Below, in pieces: positions 1 through 6,873 of a stretch of 6,873 nucleotides of DNA. The stretch is from positions 1 through 6,873 of IMG/VR virus record IMGVR_UViG_2681813268_000014, one strand, 5' to 3'. A program made the translations under genes and the position numbers. This stretch comes from a virus (Duplodnaviria; Heunggongvirae; Uroviricota; Caudoviricetes). Each line of letters opens with the position of its first letter. The stretch's first letter is position 1. Under the pieces are notes generated by a model that worked only from the letters and a program-made list of their open reading frames with translations, made no database searches and was not told the DNA's origin.

Positions 1-1
1 T

Positions 2-148
2 AGTATTAAGACTATCACTTATTTAAGTGATACTGGTTGTCTGGAGATTCAGGGGGCCAGTCTACGGACATTTTCTGCCTGTGGACCAGGAAAGTGCACG
101 GGTGCTTTCCACTCCCATGAAGCCCGGCAATCCGCGCAGATACAGTAA
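2..148 (+). CDS. 3'-terminal fragment of an upstream phage gene (5' end outside window); function unknown
   Basis: Frame 2 is open from the window edge to TAA at 146-148 (...SACGPGKCTGAFHSHEARQSAQIQ*). Same orientation as and 36 bp upstream of the rusA-Q operon. Absent from the ORF track because it has no in-window start. Confidence 0.3.
   Translation, partial: SIKTITYLSDTGCLEIQGASLRTFSACGPGKCTGAFHSHEARQSAQIQ
13..32. repeat. Perfect 9-bp inverted repeat TATCACTTA-tt-TAAGTGATA (possible protein-binding palindrome)
   Basis: Read directly from sequence; the arms are exact reverse complements with a 2-bp spacer. The TATCAC half-site resembles lambdoid operator half-sites. Lies inside the putative upstream coding fragment. 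Confidence 0.35.
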
Positions 149-184
149 TAAACGAACTGACAGCAGTAAGATGGAGCGTTTCTT

Positions 185-442
185 TTGAACAACCAGACAA
201 TGACTTTTACCCCTGAACAATTGCGTAAACACGCGCAGGAAATGCTGCGTCATGCTGAACAACTCGAAAAAACGGGCATAACAAAAGACGCTATCCGTAA
301 AGATATGGTACCCGCGCTTCGGGAACTGATGCAGGCGAAGCATCGCGCACAGAAAGCAGTAGATGAGCTGGTGGACTGTGTGGCAGAGCTGGAAACCAGA
401 GTCGGAAAGTTTGAAAAACTGGTGCAGGAGGTGCTGCGCTGA
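185..442 (+). CDS. Hypothetical small phage protein (85 aa, charged, helix-rich), first gene of the rusA-Q operon
   Basis: ORF 185..442 with TTG start and GGAG 7 nt upstream (alternative ATG at 200). Stop TGA overlaps the rusA ATG (ATGA at 442-445 region), indicating translational coupling. Confidence 0.55.
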   Translation: MNNQTMTFTPEQLRKHAQEMLRHAEQLEKTGITKDAIRKDMVPALRELMQAKHRAQKAVDELVDCVAELETRVGKFEKLVQEVLR

Positions 443-816
443 TGCGCCATGAGTTTATTTTACCTTATCCGCCGACGGTGAATACTTACTGGCGACGTCG
501 TGACAACACATATTTTGTATCAAAAGCCGGTGAGCGTTATCGCCGGGATGTGGCGCTTATTGTCCGTCAGCAGCGACTGAAATTAAGCCTGTCCGGAAGA
601 CTGGCGATAAAGATTATTGCAGAGCCACCGGATAAGCGCCGTCGTGACCTGGACAATATCCTGAAAGCACCACTGGATGCACTGACACATGCGGGAGTGT
701 TAATGGACGATGAGCAGTTTGATGAAATCAATATCGTTCGTGGTCAGCCAGTATCTGGTGGACGTCTGGGGGTGAAGATTTACCCCATAATGCATGAAGA
801 GCAGGTCAAAAAATGA
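442..816 (+). CDS. rusA: RusA-family crossover junction endodeoxyribonuclease (Holliday junction resolvase)
   Basis: 124-aa product with the RusA signatures LPYPPTVNTYWRRR and DKRRRDLDNILKAPLDALTHAGVLMDDEQ, closely matching E. coli RusA (LPWPPSNNRYYR ... [27 protein letters not shown]) as recalled from memory. Conserved lambdoid position just upstream of Q. Confidence 0.9.
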   Translation: MRHEFILPYPPTVNTYWRRRDNTYFVSKAGERYRRDVALIVRQQRLKLSLSGRLAIKIIAEPPDKRRRDLDNILKAPLDALTHAGVLMDDEQFDEINIVRGQPVSGGRLGVKIYPIMHEEQVKK

Positions 817-1667
817 AACTGGAAGATTTACCGAAATACTACTCCCCAAAATCCCCTTGCCTGACCGATGCATCGGCCTCAACGTCAAAAGATGCGCTGA
901 GTATCACTGATGTGATGGCCGCGCAGGGCATGACACAGAATCGGGCTGAGATGGGGTTTTCTGCGTTCCTGGGGAAAATGGGCATCAGTATGAATGACAG
1001 GGCGCGGGCAACAGAATTACTGGCAGATTATGCACTCAGTCGGTGCGATCGTGTGGCGGCGTTGAGAAAACTTCCGGCAGAAATAAAACCGGTAGTGATG
1101 CGCATTATGGCTTCGTACGCTTTTGAGGATTATGCCCGCAGCGCAGCGAGTAAAAAGCAGTGCCCTTGTTGCTATGGGGAAAAATTTATTGAAAGCGTAG
1201 TTTTTACAAACAAGGTCCAGTATCCGGATGGTAAGCCGCCGGTATGGGCAAAGTGTACGAAAGGTGTGTATCCGTCTTACTGGGAAGAATGGAAAAAAGT
1301 CAGGGAGGTGGTAAAAGTTGCCTGTCCGGAGTGTGGCGGAAAGGGTGAGGTTTCCACCGCCTGTAAGGATTGCCGTGGGCGTGGTGTCGCCATTCATCGT
1401 GAAGAGTCGGTAAAACGTGGTATGCCTGTTATCAGAGACTGCCAGCGTTGTGGTGGTCGTGGCTATGAAAGACTACCATCAACGGAGGCATTTAATGCTA
1501 TATGCGAGGTGACAAACCAGATAACACGCGCGTCATGGGAAAAAACAGTTAAGAAATTCTATGATGCGCTGGTGACTCGGTTTGATATTGAAGAAGCATG
1601 GGCTGAGCGGCAGTTAAAAAAGGTAACTAGGTTGATTTTTCCGGAATCTGTGGTAAATTCGTCATAA
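813..1667 (+). CDS. Late-gene antitermination protein Q-like, large zinc-finger variant
   Basis: 284-aa ORF whose ATG overlaps the rusA stop (ATGA). Contains three DnaJ-like CxxCxGxG motifs (CPECGGKG, CKDCRGRG, CQRCGGRG) plus additional CxxC. Position between rusA and the pR'/tR'/tRNA block is the canonical Q position; family assignment rests on synteny and motifs, not a homology search. Confidence 0.65.
   Translation: MKLEDLPKYYSPKSPCLTDASASTSKDALSITDVMAAQGMTQNRAEMGFSAFLGKMGISMNDRARATELLADYALSRCDRVAALRKLPAEIKPVVMRIMASYAFEDYARSAASKKQCPCCYGEKFIESVVFTNKVQYPDGKPPVWAKCTKGVYPSYWEEWKKVREVVKVACPECGGKGEVSTACKDCRGRGVAIHREESVKRGMPVIRDCQRCGGRGYERLPSTEAFNAICEVTNQITRASWEKTVKKFYDALVTRFDIEEAWAERQLKKVTRLIFPESVVNSS
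1632..1659 (+). promoter_or_regulatory. Candidate late promoter pR' (-35 TTGATT, 16-bp spacer, -10 TAAATT) overlapping the 3' end of Q
   Basis: Sigma70-like hexamers read from sequence, predicted start near 1666-1668. Placement directly after Q and before an intrinsic terminator matches lambdoid pR'/qut architecture. Confidence 0.4.
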
Positions 1668-1731
1668 CTATGGGCGTTTTATGCCTGACGTTAGAAGAGT
1701 TTCTACAACCCGCCGCCGAGCGGGTTTTTTA
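1667..1731 (+). ncRNA. Short pR'-to-tR' terminated transcript (6S-like/StxS-like late leader RNA), predicted ~65 nt
   Basis: Inferred from the predicted pR' start and the intrinsic terminator at 1708-1733. Early-terminated pR' transcripts are known sRNAs in lambdoid and Stx phages. Ends not mapped. Confidence 0.3.
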
Positions 1732-1733
1732 TT
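1708..1733 (+). terminator. Rho-independent terminator tR' (stem ACCCGC/GCGGGT, 6-nt loop, T6 tract)
   Basis: GC-rich hairpin aACCCGCcgccgaGCGGGT followed by TTTTTTATT, read directly from sequence, ~45 bp downstream of the Q stop. Confidence 0.65.
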
Positions 1734-1769
1734 GCGGAATTAATTACGGACCGTTATTATTCTGCTCCC

Positions 1770-1845
1770 GGCCCTTTAGCTCAGTGGTGAGAGCGAGCGA
1801 CTCATAATCGCCAGGTCGCTGGTTCAAATCCAGCAAGGGCCACCA
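1770..1845 (+). tRNA. ileZ: tRNA-Ile2 (anticodon CAU, lysidine-type, reads AUA); phage-borne ileZ-like
   Basis: 76-nt cloverleaf folded by hand: acceptor GGCCCTT/AAGGGCC, D-stem GCTC/GAGC, anticodon loop CTCATAA, T-arm GCTGG-TTCAAAT-CCAGC, discriminator A, encoded CCA. Near-identical in architecture to E. coli ileX, including the C4-G69/C5-G68 acceptor pairs. Confidence 0.88.
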
Positions 1846-1945
1846 TCACAAACCGCCATTAGCTTATCAGGAAGAGCAGACGACACGATAACAGGGTTGT
1901 TGGTGCGGGGGCGGGTCCCCGATGGCGGTCCATTATCGGTATTCA

Positions 1946-2022
1946 GCGTTGTTAGCTCAGCCGGACAGAGCAATTGCCTTCTAAGCAATCGGTCACTGGT
2001 TCGAATCCAGTACAGCGCGCCA
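1946..2022 (+). tRNA. tRNA-Arg (anticodon UCU, reads AGA); phage-borne argN/argO-like
   Basis: 77-nt cloverleaf folded by hand: acceptor GCGTTGT/ACAGCGC (one G-U pair), D-stem GCTC/GAGC, anticodon stem ATTGC/GCAAT with loop CTTCTAA, T-arm ACTGG-TTCGAAT-CCAGT, discriminator G, encoded CCA. Confidence 0.85.
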
Positions 2023-2132
2023 TATTCATTCTTCCAGATTCCTTCCGGCAGAGCCTTATACTGAAATATACCTGGCTCAGGATATTGTTGAAAATATTTT
2101 ATGTTTGTCAAAAATAAAAGTTCTGTTAAGTA

Positions 2133-2486
2133 TTGATTGAGTGTTTGTTATACGGTCTAATGGTTTTTTCAGCATTAAATATTTATCATTCATATGGTGT
2201 GGGTAGAGTGAATATTGATGAGGCGTCGGGGTGTTTCATCCTTAGGCAGCGTATTGATATAGTCAATGCAGCACGAGCAAAGGCCTTCAGCCGTTTGACA
2301 GTTTTGTTCTGTACTCCTGATCGTCTTTCGGGAAGAGACGTTATTATTCTGAATAGTGATGCTATACAGAGGGTTTGCGATGAGTTCATGGTTGCTAATT
2401 CAGAATTATTTGCTCTTGTTCAGGAGTACAACAGAATAGCCAGGACCTGTGGTATGGATGAACTTCGGATTACTCATCTGGGGTAG
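2133..2486 (+). CDS. Hypothetical cargo protein (117 aa from TTG, ~108 aa from ATG at 2160), no recognisable family
   Basis: Longest ORF in the segment immediately downstream of the phage tRNAs, in late-transcript orientation. No strong Shine-Dalgarno sequence; no motif I recognise. Confidence 0.4.
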   Translation: MIECLLYGLMVFSALNIYHSYGVGRVNIDEASGCFILRQRIDIVNAARAKAFSRLTVLFCTPDRLSGRDVIILNSDAIQRVCDEFMVANSELFALVQEYNRIARTCGMDELRITHLG

Positions 2487-2589
2487 ATACATATCTGGAT
2501 TATCACCTGTTACGGTAAAAAGTGATTGCTTACTGTTTTTGTGAATGGCATTGCAGCAGCCGGATAATGTCAGTGCTGGCTGACGGTGT

Positions 2590-2597
2590 GCTGGTGG
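2590..2597 (+). other. Chi site (5'-GCTGGTGG-3')
   Basis: Exact octamer match read from sequence; the only Chi octamer I found on the + strand of this window. Confidence 0.6.
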
Positions 2598-2689
2598 CGG
2601 GTGTGGTGGTTGTTGCTTTCCCGTTGCTGAAAAAGAAAACGCCAGACTGTTAGCCGGGTATCAGTTAGCGGGAGAAATTTTTAAATACT

Positions 2690-2976
2690 TCACAATTCAG
2701 GCGGTTGACTGTTGTCTGGTTTGCGGGGAGTTTGTTAAAAGAAACTGGCATGGTGAATCCCCCTGTGCGGAGGGGCAATCAGCGAGTAGGTATATGGGAT
2801 AATCGCGGATTCAGGTGCTGGTACTGAATTCACCGGGAGGCACCCGGCATCATGCAATGGCACATAGCGCCACTCTCCAGCCCTCTCCGGAGGGGCTTTT
2901 CTGTGCCGGATACATCACAGTTTCTGGAACCTTAGGTACTACAGTATCAGTCAGGGTGCTATATTTTCAGATGTGA
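2690..2976 (+). repeat. Copy 1 of a duplicated structured element (candidate sRNA gene) ending in an intrinsic terminator
   Basis: 2690-2897 aligns to 4798-5006 with one substitution (T2850 vs C4958) and one 1-nt indel in a C-run. Homology resumes after a ~62-bp copy-1-specific insertion (2898-2959) through TATATT...TCAGATGTGA (to 2976). Nested hairpins are listed in the findings. Confidence 0.85.
2879..2902 (+). terminator. Intrinsic terminator at the 3' end of repeat copy 1 (AGCCCTC-tccg-GAGGGGCT + TTTTCT)
   Basis: GC-rich 7/8-bp hairpin with tetraloop followed by a U-tract on the + strand. Confidence 0.6.
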
Positions 2977-3129
2977 TGAAAGCCTGTCAGCAGGCAGGGC
3001 GTATCGGAAATGACCCAGTAGAGAAAACGTTGACTCAGATACCGGTGCTGAGTTACCGGGAAACCGGCATCACATGACCGCTATCCTGAGGTGTACTGGC
3101 AATAGCGGACACTACCATTTGTTCTTTTT

Positions 3130-3948
3130 TTAAGCAGCCATCTGATGATATTTTTCCCTGAAGGCTGCCGGGGAGATATTCCCCAGACGAGAGTGACGAC
3201 GCTGACGATTGTAGAAAATCTCAATGTATTCCCGTATTACTGAGATGGCTTCATCCCGGTTATTAAAACGATAGTGGCTCAGGCTCTCATTTTTCAGCGT
3301 TCCCCAGAAGCTTTCCATCGGAGCGTTGTCGTAACAGTTACCTTTACGCGACATTGATGTTTTCAGACCAGACTGCTCCTGTATGACCCGGTAATCGTAT
3401 GCGCAGTACTGTGAACCTCGATCAGAGTGGTGGATTAGCCCGGCAGGTGGGCGCTGGCTCCTGAGCGCCATAAACAGGGCTTTACCTGTCAGCTCTTTTG
3501 TCATGCGCTCTCCCATGGCGTAGCCGACAATTTCGCACGTATAAACATCTTTGATGCCAGCGAGGTACAACCATCCCTCCTGTGTGGCAACATACGTCAG
3601 GTCCGCCACCCAGACCTGATTTGGTGCTGTAGGAGCGAACGTCTGGTTCAGCAGATTTGGCGCAACTGGCAGATTGTGGTTCGAGTTCGTAGTCGCTCTG
3701 AACTTGCGTTTCTGCTTACAGCGTAGCCTTAGCTCCTTACGAAGACGTGCCAGTCGGTCACGACCAACGATGATGCCATTCTCTGCCAGCTCCGTCTGGA
3801 GCCGCCGGGTTCCATATGTTTCGCGAGTGCGGATATGTGCCACCTTAATCTCCAGTTTTAGCCGCTCATCACTTTGTTTTCTGTCTGAGGGTTCATGCTG
3901 TACCCAGTTGTAATAACCGCTCCTGGATACACCAAATACCTGACACAT
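3130..3948 (-). CDS. IS3-family transposase OrfB (DDE integrase-like catalytic domain), expressed as an OrfAB fusion by -1 frameshift
   Basis: 272-aa ORF from the first ATG; the same frame stays open upstream to the slippery site near 4029-4035. Contains characteristic IS3-family OrfB segments (HHSDRGSQY..., KGNCYDNAPMESFWGTLKNE). Confidence 0.9.
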   Translation of the reverse strand: MCQVFGVSRSGYYNWVQHEPSDRKQSDERLKLEIKVAHIRTRETYGTRRLQTELAENGIIVGRDRLARLRKELRLRCKQKRKFRATTNSNHNLPVAPNLLNQTFAPTAPNQVWVADLTYVATQEGWLYLAGIKDVYTCEIVGYAMGERMTKELTGKALFMALRSQRPPAGLIHHSDRGSQYCAYDYRVIQEQSGLKTSMSRKGNCYDNAPMESFWGTLKNESLSHYRFNNRDEAISVIREYIEIFYNRQRRHSRLGNISPAAFREKYHQMAA

Positions 3949-3983
3949 CGCTTCAATGGGAAATTGTTGTCGCCATTGTTCGA

Positions 3984-4286
3984 TTAACGCGTATTTTTCA
4001 GCGACTCCTGTGCAAAATACGCTGTTGCTTTTTTTAATATATCTCGCTCAAGTCGTGCTTCATTTAAAGCCTTACGCAGTTGCATAACTTCAGATTCCAG
4101 CTCAGCCACTGTGCGGGAGCCTGGTGTATTGAGCCCTTTTCTTGCGGCGGTAACCCATTGTCCTAAAGTGCCTTCAGGAAGAGATAATCGGGAAGCGCCT
4201 TCACTGATCGAAAGTTGATTTTCAGGAACCGTTTTGACGGCTTCGGCTTTAAACTCCGTAGAGTAACGTTGGGTTTTTCTGCTCAT
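3984..4286 (-). CDS. IS3-family transposase OrfA (helix-turn-helix / leucine-zipper DNA-binding protein)
   Basis: 100-aa ORF with AAGGAG Shine-Dalgarno 7 nt upstream of the ATG. Sequence MSRKTQRYSTEFKAEAV...LERDILKKATAYFAQESL is typical of IS3-group OrfA and closely matches what I recall of IS600 OrfA. Confidence 0.9.
   Translation of the reverse strand: MSRKTQRYSTEFKAEAVKTVPENQLSISEGASRLSLPEGTLGQWVTAARKGLNTPGSRTVAELESEVMQLRKALNEARLERDILKKATAYFAQESLKNTR
4029..4035 (-). other. Programmed -1 ribosomal frameshift site A_AAA_AAA linking orfA to orfB
   Basis: T7 run on the + strand equals A7 on the coding strand, positioned in the orfA zero frame as TTA-AAA-AAA-GCA (L-K-K-A). The orfB frame is exactly -1 relative to orfA (coordinate arithmetic from the stops at 3984 and 3130). 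Confidence 0.75.
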
Positions 4287-4797
4287 TATTGGCTCCTTCT
4301 GATGCCATTCTATTTCAGGAAGGAGTGTCCGTTAAACTCAGGCTACCTCACTCCCGTAAAGACGGGAGTCAAGTTCCCGCTCCGACATAACTGCGTGCAA
4401 TGGATTTTGAAGGAACCGTCAGCCCATTCCCCGGAGGCAAACATGGGCTGGCAAAAGTGTAGCGGTATTAGGCACAGCTATTTAGGAAAGAGGGACCATC
4501 TCCATCTCATTAAATGGACCACGCCAGACAATTCACTGTCATGCTGATGCTGCACTGTGGGGACAGAATCACTCATGATGACTTCGATAATCGACGACAT
4601 TATTATTTGGCCGAGCTTTTAGGTCATATCTCAAATCGTTTGCCTAATATTGCTCCATTTTTTAATAAAAAATCAATCATTTTTGAATCTTTGCTTTTCA
4701 TTGCATTGTCAAGCATAGTGTCCCCACTATTTGCTTTTTGAAATTTTTTGTTTACATCAACCAATCCATTATTGATAAAATATTCTAGCACTTTATA

Positions 4798-5032
4798 TCA
4801 CAATTCAGGCGGTTGACTGTTGTCTGGTTTGCGGGGAGTTTGTTAAAAGAAACTGGCATGGTGAATCCCCCTGTGCGGAGGGGCAATCAGCGAGTAGGTA
4901 TATGGGATAATCGCGGATTCAGGTGCTGGTACTGAATTCACCGGGAGGCACCCGGCACCATGCAATGGCACATAGCGCCACTCTCCAGCCCCTCTCCGGA
5001 GGGGCTGTTTATATTGATTTTGTCAGATGTGA
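4798..5032 (+). repeat. Copy 2 of the duplicated structured element (candidate sRNA gene) ending in an intrinsic terminator
   Basis: Aligns to copy 1 at ~99% identity over ~209 bp with a tail match (TATATT...AGATGTGA). A promoter-like TTGATA-N16-TATATC lies at 4772-4799, immediately upstream. Confidence 0.85.
4987..5015 (+). terminator. Intrinsic terminator at the 3' end of repeat copy 2 (AGCCCCTC-tccg-GAGGGGCT + GTTTATATT)
   Basis: Perfect 8-bp GC-rich hairpin with tetraloop followed by a T-rich tract, read from sequence. Confidence 0.55.
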
Positions 5033-5041
5033 GTAAACTCC

Positions 5042-5377
5042 TTATGGACTTTGTTGTTTTAGCCCATAAGGACATATTTGCAGAGTGCAACGGTTATTAA
5101 AGCATTCATTCAATACGTTATCTGTATTTGTAGGGCATTCCTGGCTGTTTTTGATTAAATTCCAGAATGTTTTATTGAATGGTACTACGTTGTAAATGGT
5201 TACAGGTAGCACTTTGTTATTGAGCATGATGCCTGTGTGAGTCAGTGTAAATATACTTTCAGGAGGTAAGAAAGCATCCGATTGATACCAGATTATTAAT
5301 TTTATTTTACTCCATATGACTGAAAAAGATATTCCGCATGATGGCTGGATAACTGTATCAATCACAATCCACTTCAT
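5042..5377 (-). CDS. Hypothetical Cys-rich small protein (111 aa) encoded antisense to the late operon in AT-rich cargo DNA
   Basis: ATG preceded by AAGGAA Shine-Dalgarno at 5-6 nt spacing (coding strand AAACAAGGAAACTAA-ATG). Six cysteines, six AUA codons. Ends 5 bp from the repeat-2 homology tail and 27 bp from its terminator. No family recognised. Confidence 0.4.
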
Positions 5378-5637
5378 TTAGTTTCCTTGTTTATGCCTTG
5401 CTGGTGATGTTCTGAAAAGTATAAATGATATTTTTGATTGTAAACCATAGAGCAGAATTATTTTTCTGATGTTGTTTATTGTTTATTTAAATGCAGGGTG
5501 GTTTATATCTCGTCTTGTAGTTTATCCATGCATATCTGCTTGATGATGAGGTTTTTATTTAAGGTATGGTTTTGTGTTTTTTCTGTATTACATGTCAGGT
5601 ATTTTAAAGAATCATTTTTCAGATGGTGGAAAGAACC

Positions 5638-6873
5638 ATGGCATTTAAACACTATGATGTTGTCAGGGCGGCGTCGCCGTCAGATCTTGCGGAAAAGCTG
5701 ACACATAAACTGAAAGAGGGCTGGCAGCCGTTTGGTAGTCCGGTGGCCATAACCCCTTATACCCTGATGCAGGCGATTGCAGCAGAAGGTGATGTGGTCG
5801 TCAGTGGTGCAACTGAGCCGGAGTGGTACTACGTCATCGTACTGGCCGGGCAGTCCAATGCCATGGCTTACGGTGAAGGGCTTCCGCTTCCGGATTCATA
5901 CGATGCGCCCCATCCGCGCATTAAGCAACTGGCCCGTCGTAACACAGTGACTCCCGGTGGTGAAGTATGCGTATTTAACGACATCATTCCTGCTGACCAT
6001 TGTCTGCATGATGTTCAGGATATGAGTACGATTAACCATCCCCGGGCTGACCTGAGCAAAGGGCAGTACGGCTGTGTCGGACAGGGCTTACATATTGCCA
6101 AAAAACTGCTTCCGTATATCCCTAATAATGCGGGGATCCTGCTGGTACCATGCTGTCGTGGTGGTTCGGCATTCACCCAGGGCACGGAGGGGACATTCAG
6201 CGAGTCCACGGGAGCCAGTCAGGATTCGGCTCGCTGGGGAGTGGGTAAGCCGTTATATCAGGATCTGCTTTTCCGCACGAAGGCAGCATTGCAGAAAAAC
6301 CCGAAAAACGTTTTGCTGGCGATATGCTGGATGCAGGGGGAATTCGATATGACGAATGCCAGTTACGCCCAGCAGCCAGCAGCATTTCTTGCAATGGTAC
6401 AGCAGTTCCGTGCTGACCTTGCCGGGCTGGCAGCGCAGTGTCACGGTGGAAGTCCGGCATCAGTCCCCTGGATTTGTGGCGACACGACATACGCGTGGAA
6501 ACAAGAACACGGTACGCAATATGAAGTGGTATATGGTGCATATAAAGGTAAAGAATCCCAGCAGATTTATTTTGTTCCCTTTATGACCGATGGTAGCGGA
6601 GTTAATACACCGACAAACAACCCGTCAGAAGATCCTGATATTGCCGGGTCTGGTTATTACGGTTCGGCATCCCGAACGAACAAAAACTGGGTATCATCAA
6701 ATCGCCCGACGCATTTCAGCTCATGGGCGCGTCGTGGCATTATTCCCGATCGTATGGCAACTGCTATTCTGAACGTAGCCGGTCGCACCTTAGCCTTCAT
6801 TAGTGGTAAGGCACCGGAAATCAAACCCTCGCCCGGCGGCGACACGCCATCGGGGCCGTCTGAAGATGCATCC
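5638..6873 (+). CDS. nanS-p: Prophage sialate O-acetylesterase (NanS-p-like; N-terminal DUF1737-like region plus SGNH/SASA esterase domain), 3' end beyond window
   Basis: Uninterrupted 412-codon frame from ATG 5638 to the window edge; missing from the ORF track because there is no in-window stop. Contains the esterase motif GQSNAMAYGEG. Occupies the conserved position between the stx/cargo slot and the lysis genes in Stx-type prophages. Confidence 0.82.
   Translation, partial: MAFKHYDVVRAASPSDLAEKLTHKLKEGWQPFGSPVAITPYTLMQAIAAEGDVVVSGATEPEWYYVIVLAGQSNAMAYGEGLPLPDSYDAPHPRIKQLARRNTVTPGGEVCVFNDIIPADHCLHDVQDMSTINHPRADLSKGQYGCVGQGLHIAKKLLPYIPNNAGILLVPCCRGGSAFTQGTEGTFSESTGASQDSARWGVGKPLYQDLLFRTKAALQKNPKNVLLAICWMQGEFDMTNASYAQQPAAFLAMVQQFRADLAGLAAQCHGGSPASVPWICGDTTYAWKQEHGTQYEVVYGAYKGKESQQIYFVPFMTDGSGVNTPTNNPSEDPDIAGSGYYGSASRTNKNWVSSNRPTHFSSWARRGIIPDRMATAILNVAGRTLAFISGKAPEIKPSPGGDTPSGPSEDAS

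Follow-up and report, generated by a model that had tools for sequence, protein, structure and literature searches.

The stretch of DNA analyzed here (hereafter the window) comprises 6,873 nucleotides, positions 1 to 6,873 of the IMG/VR virus record IMGVR_UViG_2681813268_000014, and corresponds to a decayed lambdoid prophage's late-control region. It contains a 284-residue antiterminator gene, Q (813..1667, plus strand), at the 3′ end of which lies a compact set of transcription signals at 1632-1733, followed by two tRNA genes. In phages of the Q-lambda family (PF03589), the late-gene cassette is defined by its order, with the Q gene followed by the late promoter pR′, the sigma-dependent pause element (SDPE), the terminator and, lastly, the late genes (PMC9388147). 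We conclude that 1632-1733 is, very probably, the Q-dependent late-gene cassette of a lambdoid prophage with a Q-lambda-family Q, consisting of pR′ with an embedded Q-binding element (QBE), an SDPE and the intrinsic terminator tR′.

Elements at the 3′ end of the Q gene

The predicted Q protein matches Pfam PF03589 with an E value of 7e-55 and is 28.8% identical to lambda Q (tblastn). Its residues 1-113 and 182-273 match residues 1-113 and 116-207 of Q-lambda in PDB 7UBM, in which 207 is the last residue; the protein thus comprises the whole of the lambda protein plus a CxxC-rich insertion of 68 amino acids (residues 114-181). On the strength of these matches, the gene upstream of the cassette is identified as a Q-lambda-family antiterminator. 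The insertion (window 1152-1355) separates the Q-lambda body from the zinc-ribbon arm and carries an extra CxxC...CxxCxGxG DnaJ-like zinc-finger motif, which is common to this Q clade.

For comparison, loci with relatives of Q were gathered from IMG/VR (80 loci), from one-genome-per-species bacterial contigs (79 loci, found with a five-sequence Q alignment) and from about 20 annotated phages. Most of ~96 such loci, from phages and from Enterobacterales, display the same ordered anatomy 3′ of Q: a -35 element, a spacer, a -10 element, 6 nt, the segment AACGATGGG, a G+C-rich hairpin and a U-run. In the window, this series begins within the last 36 nt of Q with the -35 hexamer TTGATT (1632..1637, plus strand), as read from the sequence; the same position is occupied by TTGACT in lambda and P22, and by TTTACT or TTGATT in the closest Q clade. 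A 16-nt spacer, TTTCCGGAATCTGTGG (1638..1653, plus strand), which includes the TG of an extended -10 (TGn) at 1651-1652, leads to the -10 hexamer TAAATT (1654..1659, plus strand). This hexamer is identical to the pR′ -10 of lambda and P22, and the P22-pbi record annotates its late promoter at this element.

The QBE is located between the -35 and -10 elements (PMC4914094). In loci with a Q at least about 50% identical to that of the window, the spacer is kept as TTTCC[C/G]GAA[T/A]CTGTG, and the spacers of other Q clades are unrelated to it (TTTTCAAAAAATATGG in SfV and Qin, AAAGTGGCGATATTTGT in ES18-like loci and TATTGAATAAAATTGGG in lambda and P22), that of the Providencia clade being different as well. 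Tracking of the Q clade is the pattern expected of a QBE and suggests that the spacer, marked as a candidate by this conservation, holds a clade-specific QBE to which Q would bind.

Beyond the -10 element, the sequence TAAATT-CGTCAT-AACTATGGG of the window parallels TAAATT-TGACTC-AACGATGG of lambda and P22. The P22-pbi record has the late RNA begin at the first A of AACGATGG, 7 nt past TAAATT, and because of this homology the start is placed at A1666 and the segment 1666..1674 (plus strand) is read as the sigma70-dependent pause element AACTAT followed by GGG. The family consensus of this segment is AACGATGGG; across 45 distinct leaders, A+1, A+2, T+6 and G+8 are invariant and positions +3 and +4 vary. 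The composite of a -10-like hexamer, six nucleotides and AANNATGG occurs once in the window, exactly at the unit, against an expectation of 0.04. Slightly further 3′, TATG at 1680..1683 (plus strand, +15 to +18) fits the T-N-Y-G pause-site consensus, which was defined at +14 to +17 of lambda pR′ (PMC9191641). Among 22 related leaders, T occupies column 15 in at least 90% and column 17 in all, with G at column 18 in 18 of the 22, and pausing is predicted at about +17/+18.

The intrinsic terminator tR′ (1707..1733, plus strand) was located by terminator scan, folding and covariation, about 42 nt 3′ of the start. Its stem pairs 1707-1713 with 1720-1726 through five G-C and two A-U pairs around the loop CGCCGA (1714-1719), and the U-run TTTTTTATT occupies 1725-1733; the hairpin is listed by a generic terminator scan and folds with -11.2 kcal/mol. 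The RNAalifold consensus of the terminator hairpin in the 45 distinct leaders contains compensatory changes in five of its eight pairs, and the SfV, ES18 and P22 records list the homologous hairpin as a terminator. The 3′ ends are predicted at about 1731-1733, giving an RNA of 66-68 nt when counted from 1666. As a whole, the leader does not fold with unusual stability (z = -1.3). A possible 5′-terminal RNA hairpin (1666..1692, plus strand), with +1 to +4 pairing with +24 to +27 and +7 to +12 with +16 to +21, has a local fold of -6.3 kcal/mol; 91% of cells pair, compared with 30-46% when the partners are slid, and its covariation is no better than in shuffles, with one compensatory event in the lambda-like class (AATGA/TCATT). 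Between ~+27 and the terminator, relatives have linkers of freely varying length and sequence.

An earlier note on this DNA, made from its letters and a list of its open reading frames, had described a pR′-tR′ late-leader unit directly 3′ of Q, with a start near 1666 and an early-terminated RNA of ~65 nt, just upstream of the tRNA genes. Homology and the conserved anatomy bear this description out: each element of the promoter and terminator lies where it was placed or no more than a few bases away, the computed length matches closely, and the tRNA genes begin at 1770 and 1946.

Related loci and the proposed late-gene cassette

The 45 distinct Q-lambda-family leaders have terminator hairpins that end at +51 to +68, and the annotated distance from start to terminator in P22 corresponds to a leader of ~59 nt. 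By these predicted and annotated ends, a terminated leader of 55-70 nt is normal in the Q-lambda family and the 194 nt of lambda are the outlier, which corrects the impression of leader length derived from lambda and overturns the description of the unit as unusually short in the earlier note. Of 5426 complete E. coli genomes, 2394 (about 44%) contain a unit at least 80% identical to that of the window. Sequence and comparison document the family membership of Q, the conservation of every element and the covariation of the terminator; the unit is real, correctly located and of the Q-lambda type, a widespread cassette of textbook kind and normal size.

One of the closest described counterparts is the P-late (pR′)/qut/t-late region of P22, 3′ of gene 23. 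It belongs to the same Q family, has the same -10 TAAATT and the same 6-nt gap to the start, and continues with a corresponding pause element (AACGATGG in P22, AACTATGG in the window) and an intrinsic terminator ~30-40 nt further on. The differences are that the two Q proteins are about 29% identical, with the 68-residue insertion present in the window Q, that the spacers holding the candidate QBE are unrelated, that terminator sequence and leader linker are not the same, and that the genes downstream are tRNAs in the window and a holin in P22. The lambda pR′-qut-tR′ region, the source of 6S RNA, likewise shares the PF03589 family, the logic of promoter, QBE, pause and terminator, the -10 element and a near-identical pause element; however, its terminated RNA is about 194 nt long and its promoter has a 17-nt spacer without TGn, in contrast to the 16-nt spacer with TGn of the window.

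Homologous leaders in the same layout occur in K-12 Qin, 3′ of ydfT/quuQ, and in SfV, where the site is annotated as a putative rho-independent terminator; the SfV leader is 78.5% identical to that of the window over +1 to +65. The Q proteins of Qin and SfV, in contrast, are only about 39-41% identical to the window Q, and their spacer and candidate QBE are different. The Qin cassette reads TTTGCA...TAAAAT-N6-AACGATGGGCTTTGTATACC...AAACCCGCTGATGAGCGGGTTTT (L327, 3858-3960; NC_000913.3, about 1,642,357-1,642,459, minus strand) and predicts an RNA of ~60 nt at a site where no feature is annotated. The importance of the cassette lies mainly in annotation, as the start, pause and stop of late transcription can be located for a very common prophage family in which, K-12 Qin included, they are unannotated in RefSeq.

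From lambda and P22 biochemistry, together with the record annotation, the start site, the pause, the position of the QBE and the loading of Q can be transferred to the window by analogy, and the cassette would then operate as follows. Sigma70 holoenzyme would initiate at about A1666 from TTGATT-16-TGgTAAATT, after which sigma region 2 would re-bind the -10-like AACTAT at +1 to +6 in the non-template strand and hold the polymerase in a pause near +17/+18. When Q is absent, the polymerase would escape and stop at 1707-1733, the 66-68-nt RNA being freed as a by-product. When Q is present, bound to the clade-specific spacer element (TTTCCGGAATCTGTG), it would load onto the paused complex and render the polymerase resistant to the terminator, so that transcription would read into the tRNA genes and the late region.

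The overlap between pR′ and the Q stop codon (TAA, 1665-1667) has a separate history. The Q of mEp460, like that of 75 of 80 close relatives, terminates with ...KVTR-stop, 39 nt before the start; the ...KVTR terminus is kept in 14 diverse homologues of the family, and the ...VTR end coincides with the last residue of Q-lambda. Compared with mEp460 and most relatives, the window has an 8-bp deletion in the region 1628-1667 (AGGTAACTAGGTAACAAGGTTG in most relatives, AGGTAACTAGGTTG in the window), which removes the usual stop, and the reading frame runs on through the promoter and gains 11 residues, LIFPESVVNSS, past the KVTR end. The deletion is rare: 5 of the 80 IMG/VR relatives have it, as do 5 of the 2397 records from E. 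coli at 95-99% identity. The sigma70-like promoter overlapping the Q stop codon that the earlier note had reported is therefore present as described, but the overlap exists because the deletion removed the normal stop; judged against the relatives, it is a derived accident and no design feature.

Several observations weigh against the cassette reading and must be set beside it. The promoter matches the consensus at only 8 of 12 positions and has a 16-nt spacer, compared with the 9 of 12 or better listed by a generic scan; a count of all sites that match at 8 or more of the 12 positions and have TGn gives 1 in the window and 2.4 ± 1.3 in shuffles. By itself, the promoter match does not exceed chance, and it is homology that identifies the unit. 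The position of the QBE is assigned solely from clade-specific conservation. At the pause element, AACTAT is a minority allele, carried by 7 of the 81 close copies, the family consensus being AACGAT, and the -35-like segment just 5′ of it is TCGTCA here, compared with TTGACT in lambda. Furthermore, since the C-terminal residues of Q-lambda refold and touch the nozzle in the Q-lambda structures (PMC9388147), the 11-residue C-terminal extension may prevent or impair antitermination in this copy, in which promoter and terminator are intact. Lastly, the transcript from this element is itself a prediction made from the sequence.

The pause element was also found to be a site of exceptional variation. 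In 81 near-identical copies, positions +3 and +4 (1668-1669) are hypervariable, with C52/T24/A5 and G66/A8/T7, respectively, giving the alleles AACGAT, AATGAT, AACTAT, AAAGAT, AACAAT and AATAAT; A+2 and T+6 never change among these copies. The entropy is 1.18 and 0.88 bits at the two positions, compared with 0.005-0.05 bits per site as the means of 50-column bins across Q. Two alleles at +3/+4 are found within each of four flank haplotypes that show no difference over the other 921 aligned columns, which points to recurrent change. The cause could be that the pause is tuned, or that the non-template strand is mutagenized while exposed in a long-lived paused bubble, and this recurrent change is the most interesting by-product of the analysis.

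Alternative readings of the leader RNA

The cassette reading treats the terminated RNA as a by-product. By analogy with StxS and HnrS, the 66-68-nt leader might, beyond that, be a stable, Hfq-associated, trans-acting small RNA (sRNA) of the lysogen, which we consider unlikely. Promoters of the pR′ type are constitutive and their transcripts are terminated in lysogens, and StxS demonstrates that such RNAs can gain targets (PMC7547250); a prophage sRNA of 66 nt, HnrS, regulates hha (PMC13502914). The leader itself would suit such a role in that its 3′ end is a hairpin with a U-run, it has an A/G-rich unstructured stretch, UAGAAGAG, at +27 to +34, and units at least 80% identical recur in the 2394 E. 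coli genomes counted above. However, the parts of the leader that are conserved, +1 to about +27 and the terminator, are accounted for by the needs of pausing and termination, and the freely varying linker between them is unlike a conserved seed. Similarity to StxS or HnrS is limited to generic terminator stems, Rfam has no family at threshold in the unit, and lambda 6S RNA, the product of the equivalent region, has no assigned function (PMC7547250). Full-text literature searches for the leader, K-12 leader and spacer sequences returned no papers, and a search for ydfT/quuQ returned nothing relevant.

The comparison with StxS, which the earlier note had drawn as one between RNAs terminated at tR′, is not between like molecules, as StxS is made as a 258-nt primary pR′ transcript and cut by RNase E to 74 nt (PMC7547250). 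The two loci are alike in that each has a constitutive, terminated late promoter between Q and an ileZ/argN/argO-type tRNA module. In contrast, the Q of the StxS phage has 144 residues in the phage record, against 284 in the window, and it probably comes from a different Q family. Hfq binding and the rpoS and stx1 targets of StxS have been demonstrated (PMC7547250), whereas the window leader is a predicted RNA. The alignment proposed in the earlier note was carried out with blastn (word size 7) against the Q-to-tRNA interval of a Stx2a phage and found no similarity to the StxS part; the sole match, 24 nt at 87.5% identity, is to a terminator-like hairpin outside StxS, and homology to StxS was rejected. 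The hairpin in question, GAACCCGCCGATGCGCGGGTTTTTTT (L325, 940-972), lies about 45 nt after the Q933-type Q gene and has a stem resembling that of the window tR′. A second hairpin of the same phage, CCAGCC...GGCTGGCTTTTTT, at about 1151-1180 and well 3′ of the first, appears to be the StxS terminator.

HnrS (EcOnc10-12), a multicopy prophage sRNA of 66 nt (PMC13502914), resembles the window leader in its approximate size, its location in a prophage late region and its intrinsic terminator. Its sequence is unrelated, it lacks the AACGATGGG start, and it has a complement to mazF, CTACCCAATCAGTAC, and a CUUCU directed against the ribosome-binding site, both of which are absent from the window leader. 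A candidate HnrS was recovered by taking the mazF 3′ end from K-12 and scanning viral contigs for its complement. The candidate, recovered from prophage contigs by this 15-nt complement, is unrelated to the leader, the complement is absent from the window, and the identity of the leader with HnrS was rejected.

A broader form of the sRNA reading is more doubtful still. It would hold that the leader, like its homologues in ~44% of complete E. coli genomes (K-12 Qin among them), acts in trans as a stable, Hfq-dependent sRNA and is produced constitutively by prophages that are resident or even decayed; the changes at +3/+4 would then be a matter of tuning, or of mutagenesis associated with transcription, at a paused bubble with a long lifetime. 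Proof of sRNA function for the leader would add a widespread prophage regulator beside StxS and HnrS. As it stands, the sRNA idea extrapolates from these analogies in a way that is legitimate but unsupported, and nothing found requires it.

A simpler reading, that the hairpin is the plain terminator of the Q (early/middle) operon and that the promoter-like and pause-like sequences have arisen by chance, is very improbable. The chance-level promoter match and the position of the hairpin, about 40 nt 3′ of the Q stop codon, would fit it. However, the composite of -10-like hexamer, N6 and AANNATGG is unique in the window, far above its expected 0.04 occurrences, and is kept across genera 3′ of homologous Q genes; the unit aligns base for base with the annotated pR′, qut and 5′ end of P22; and the Q of most relatives stops before the -35 element.

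Least credible of all is attenuation in the manner of a trp leader, in which an AUG at +5 (1670) would open a short reading frame controlling the terminator: a weak Rfam match to Trp_leader (1627-1733, 25.7 bits, E 0.066), the sole Rfam 15 match over the unit, and a frame at 1670-1807 that is open through the terminator, with similar frames in several relatives, speak for it. However, the score is under the family's gathering threshold (41), a Shine-Dalgarno sequence is absent, the 5′ leader has only 4 nt, and the AUG is forced by T+6 and GGG of the pause element and is replaced by CTG in one relative (L253). Lambda, mEp237 and YeP1 have a stop at codon 3 of the frame, and L262 has one at codon 7. 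Moreover, codons 3 and 7 of the 22 closest leaders never change at their third positions, whereas first positions vary, a non-coding pattern. With a reading frame that is not conserved and substitutions that are not coding-like, the leader peptide was rejected.

Flanking genes and mosaic structure

Upstream of Q, the window contains a RusA gene (442-816). The first gene 3′ of tR′ is a tRNA(CAT) (1770-1845, plus strand), followed by a tRNA-Arg(TCT) (1946-2022, plus strand), both identified with ARAGORN and Rfam; their homologues in Stx-phage records are annotated as ileZ, argN and argO. Homology to this Stx-phage-type tRNA module starts at ~1730, directly after the tR′ U-run, and marks a mosaic joint, at which some close relatives change to another module (TTTTTTAT|GACTGAAATC...). 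A weak promoter-like sequence, TTGCGG (1732-1737) and TATTAT (1755-1760) separated by 17 nt, adjoins the tRNA at 1770, and the tRNAs may therefore be expressed other than by read-through from pR′ alone.

Beyond the tRNAs lies an open reading frame of 117 amino acids (2133-2486) whose counterparts in related prophages are named anti-adapter protein IraM in RefSeq; a Pfam scan of this frame gave no match. Rfam identifies two strong copies of STnc100 (RF02076), at 2719-2908 and 4827-5016 (122 and 132 bits), and a third, weak match at 2947-3135. Between the strong copies are an IS600 (3130-4286, minus strand) and an OspC fragment comprising the C-terminal 55 amino acids (4624-4791, minus strand), and the last gene in the window is a DUF1737/SASA esterase gene. 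It is because of the IS600 and the OspC fragment that the prophage is called decayed in this copy. The strong STnc100 copies form direct repeats flanking these two elements, an arrangement that suggests a duplication or rearrangement of the late region.

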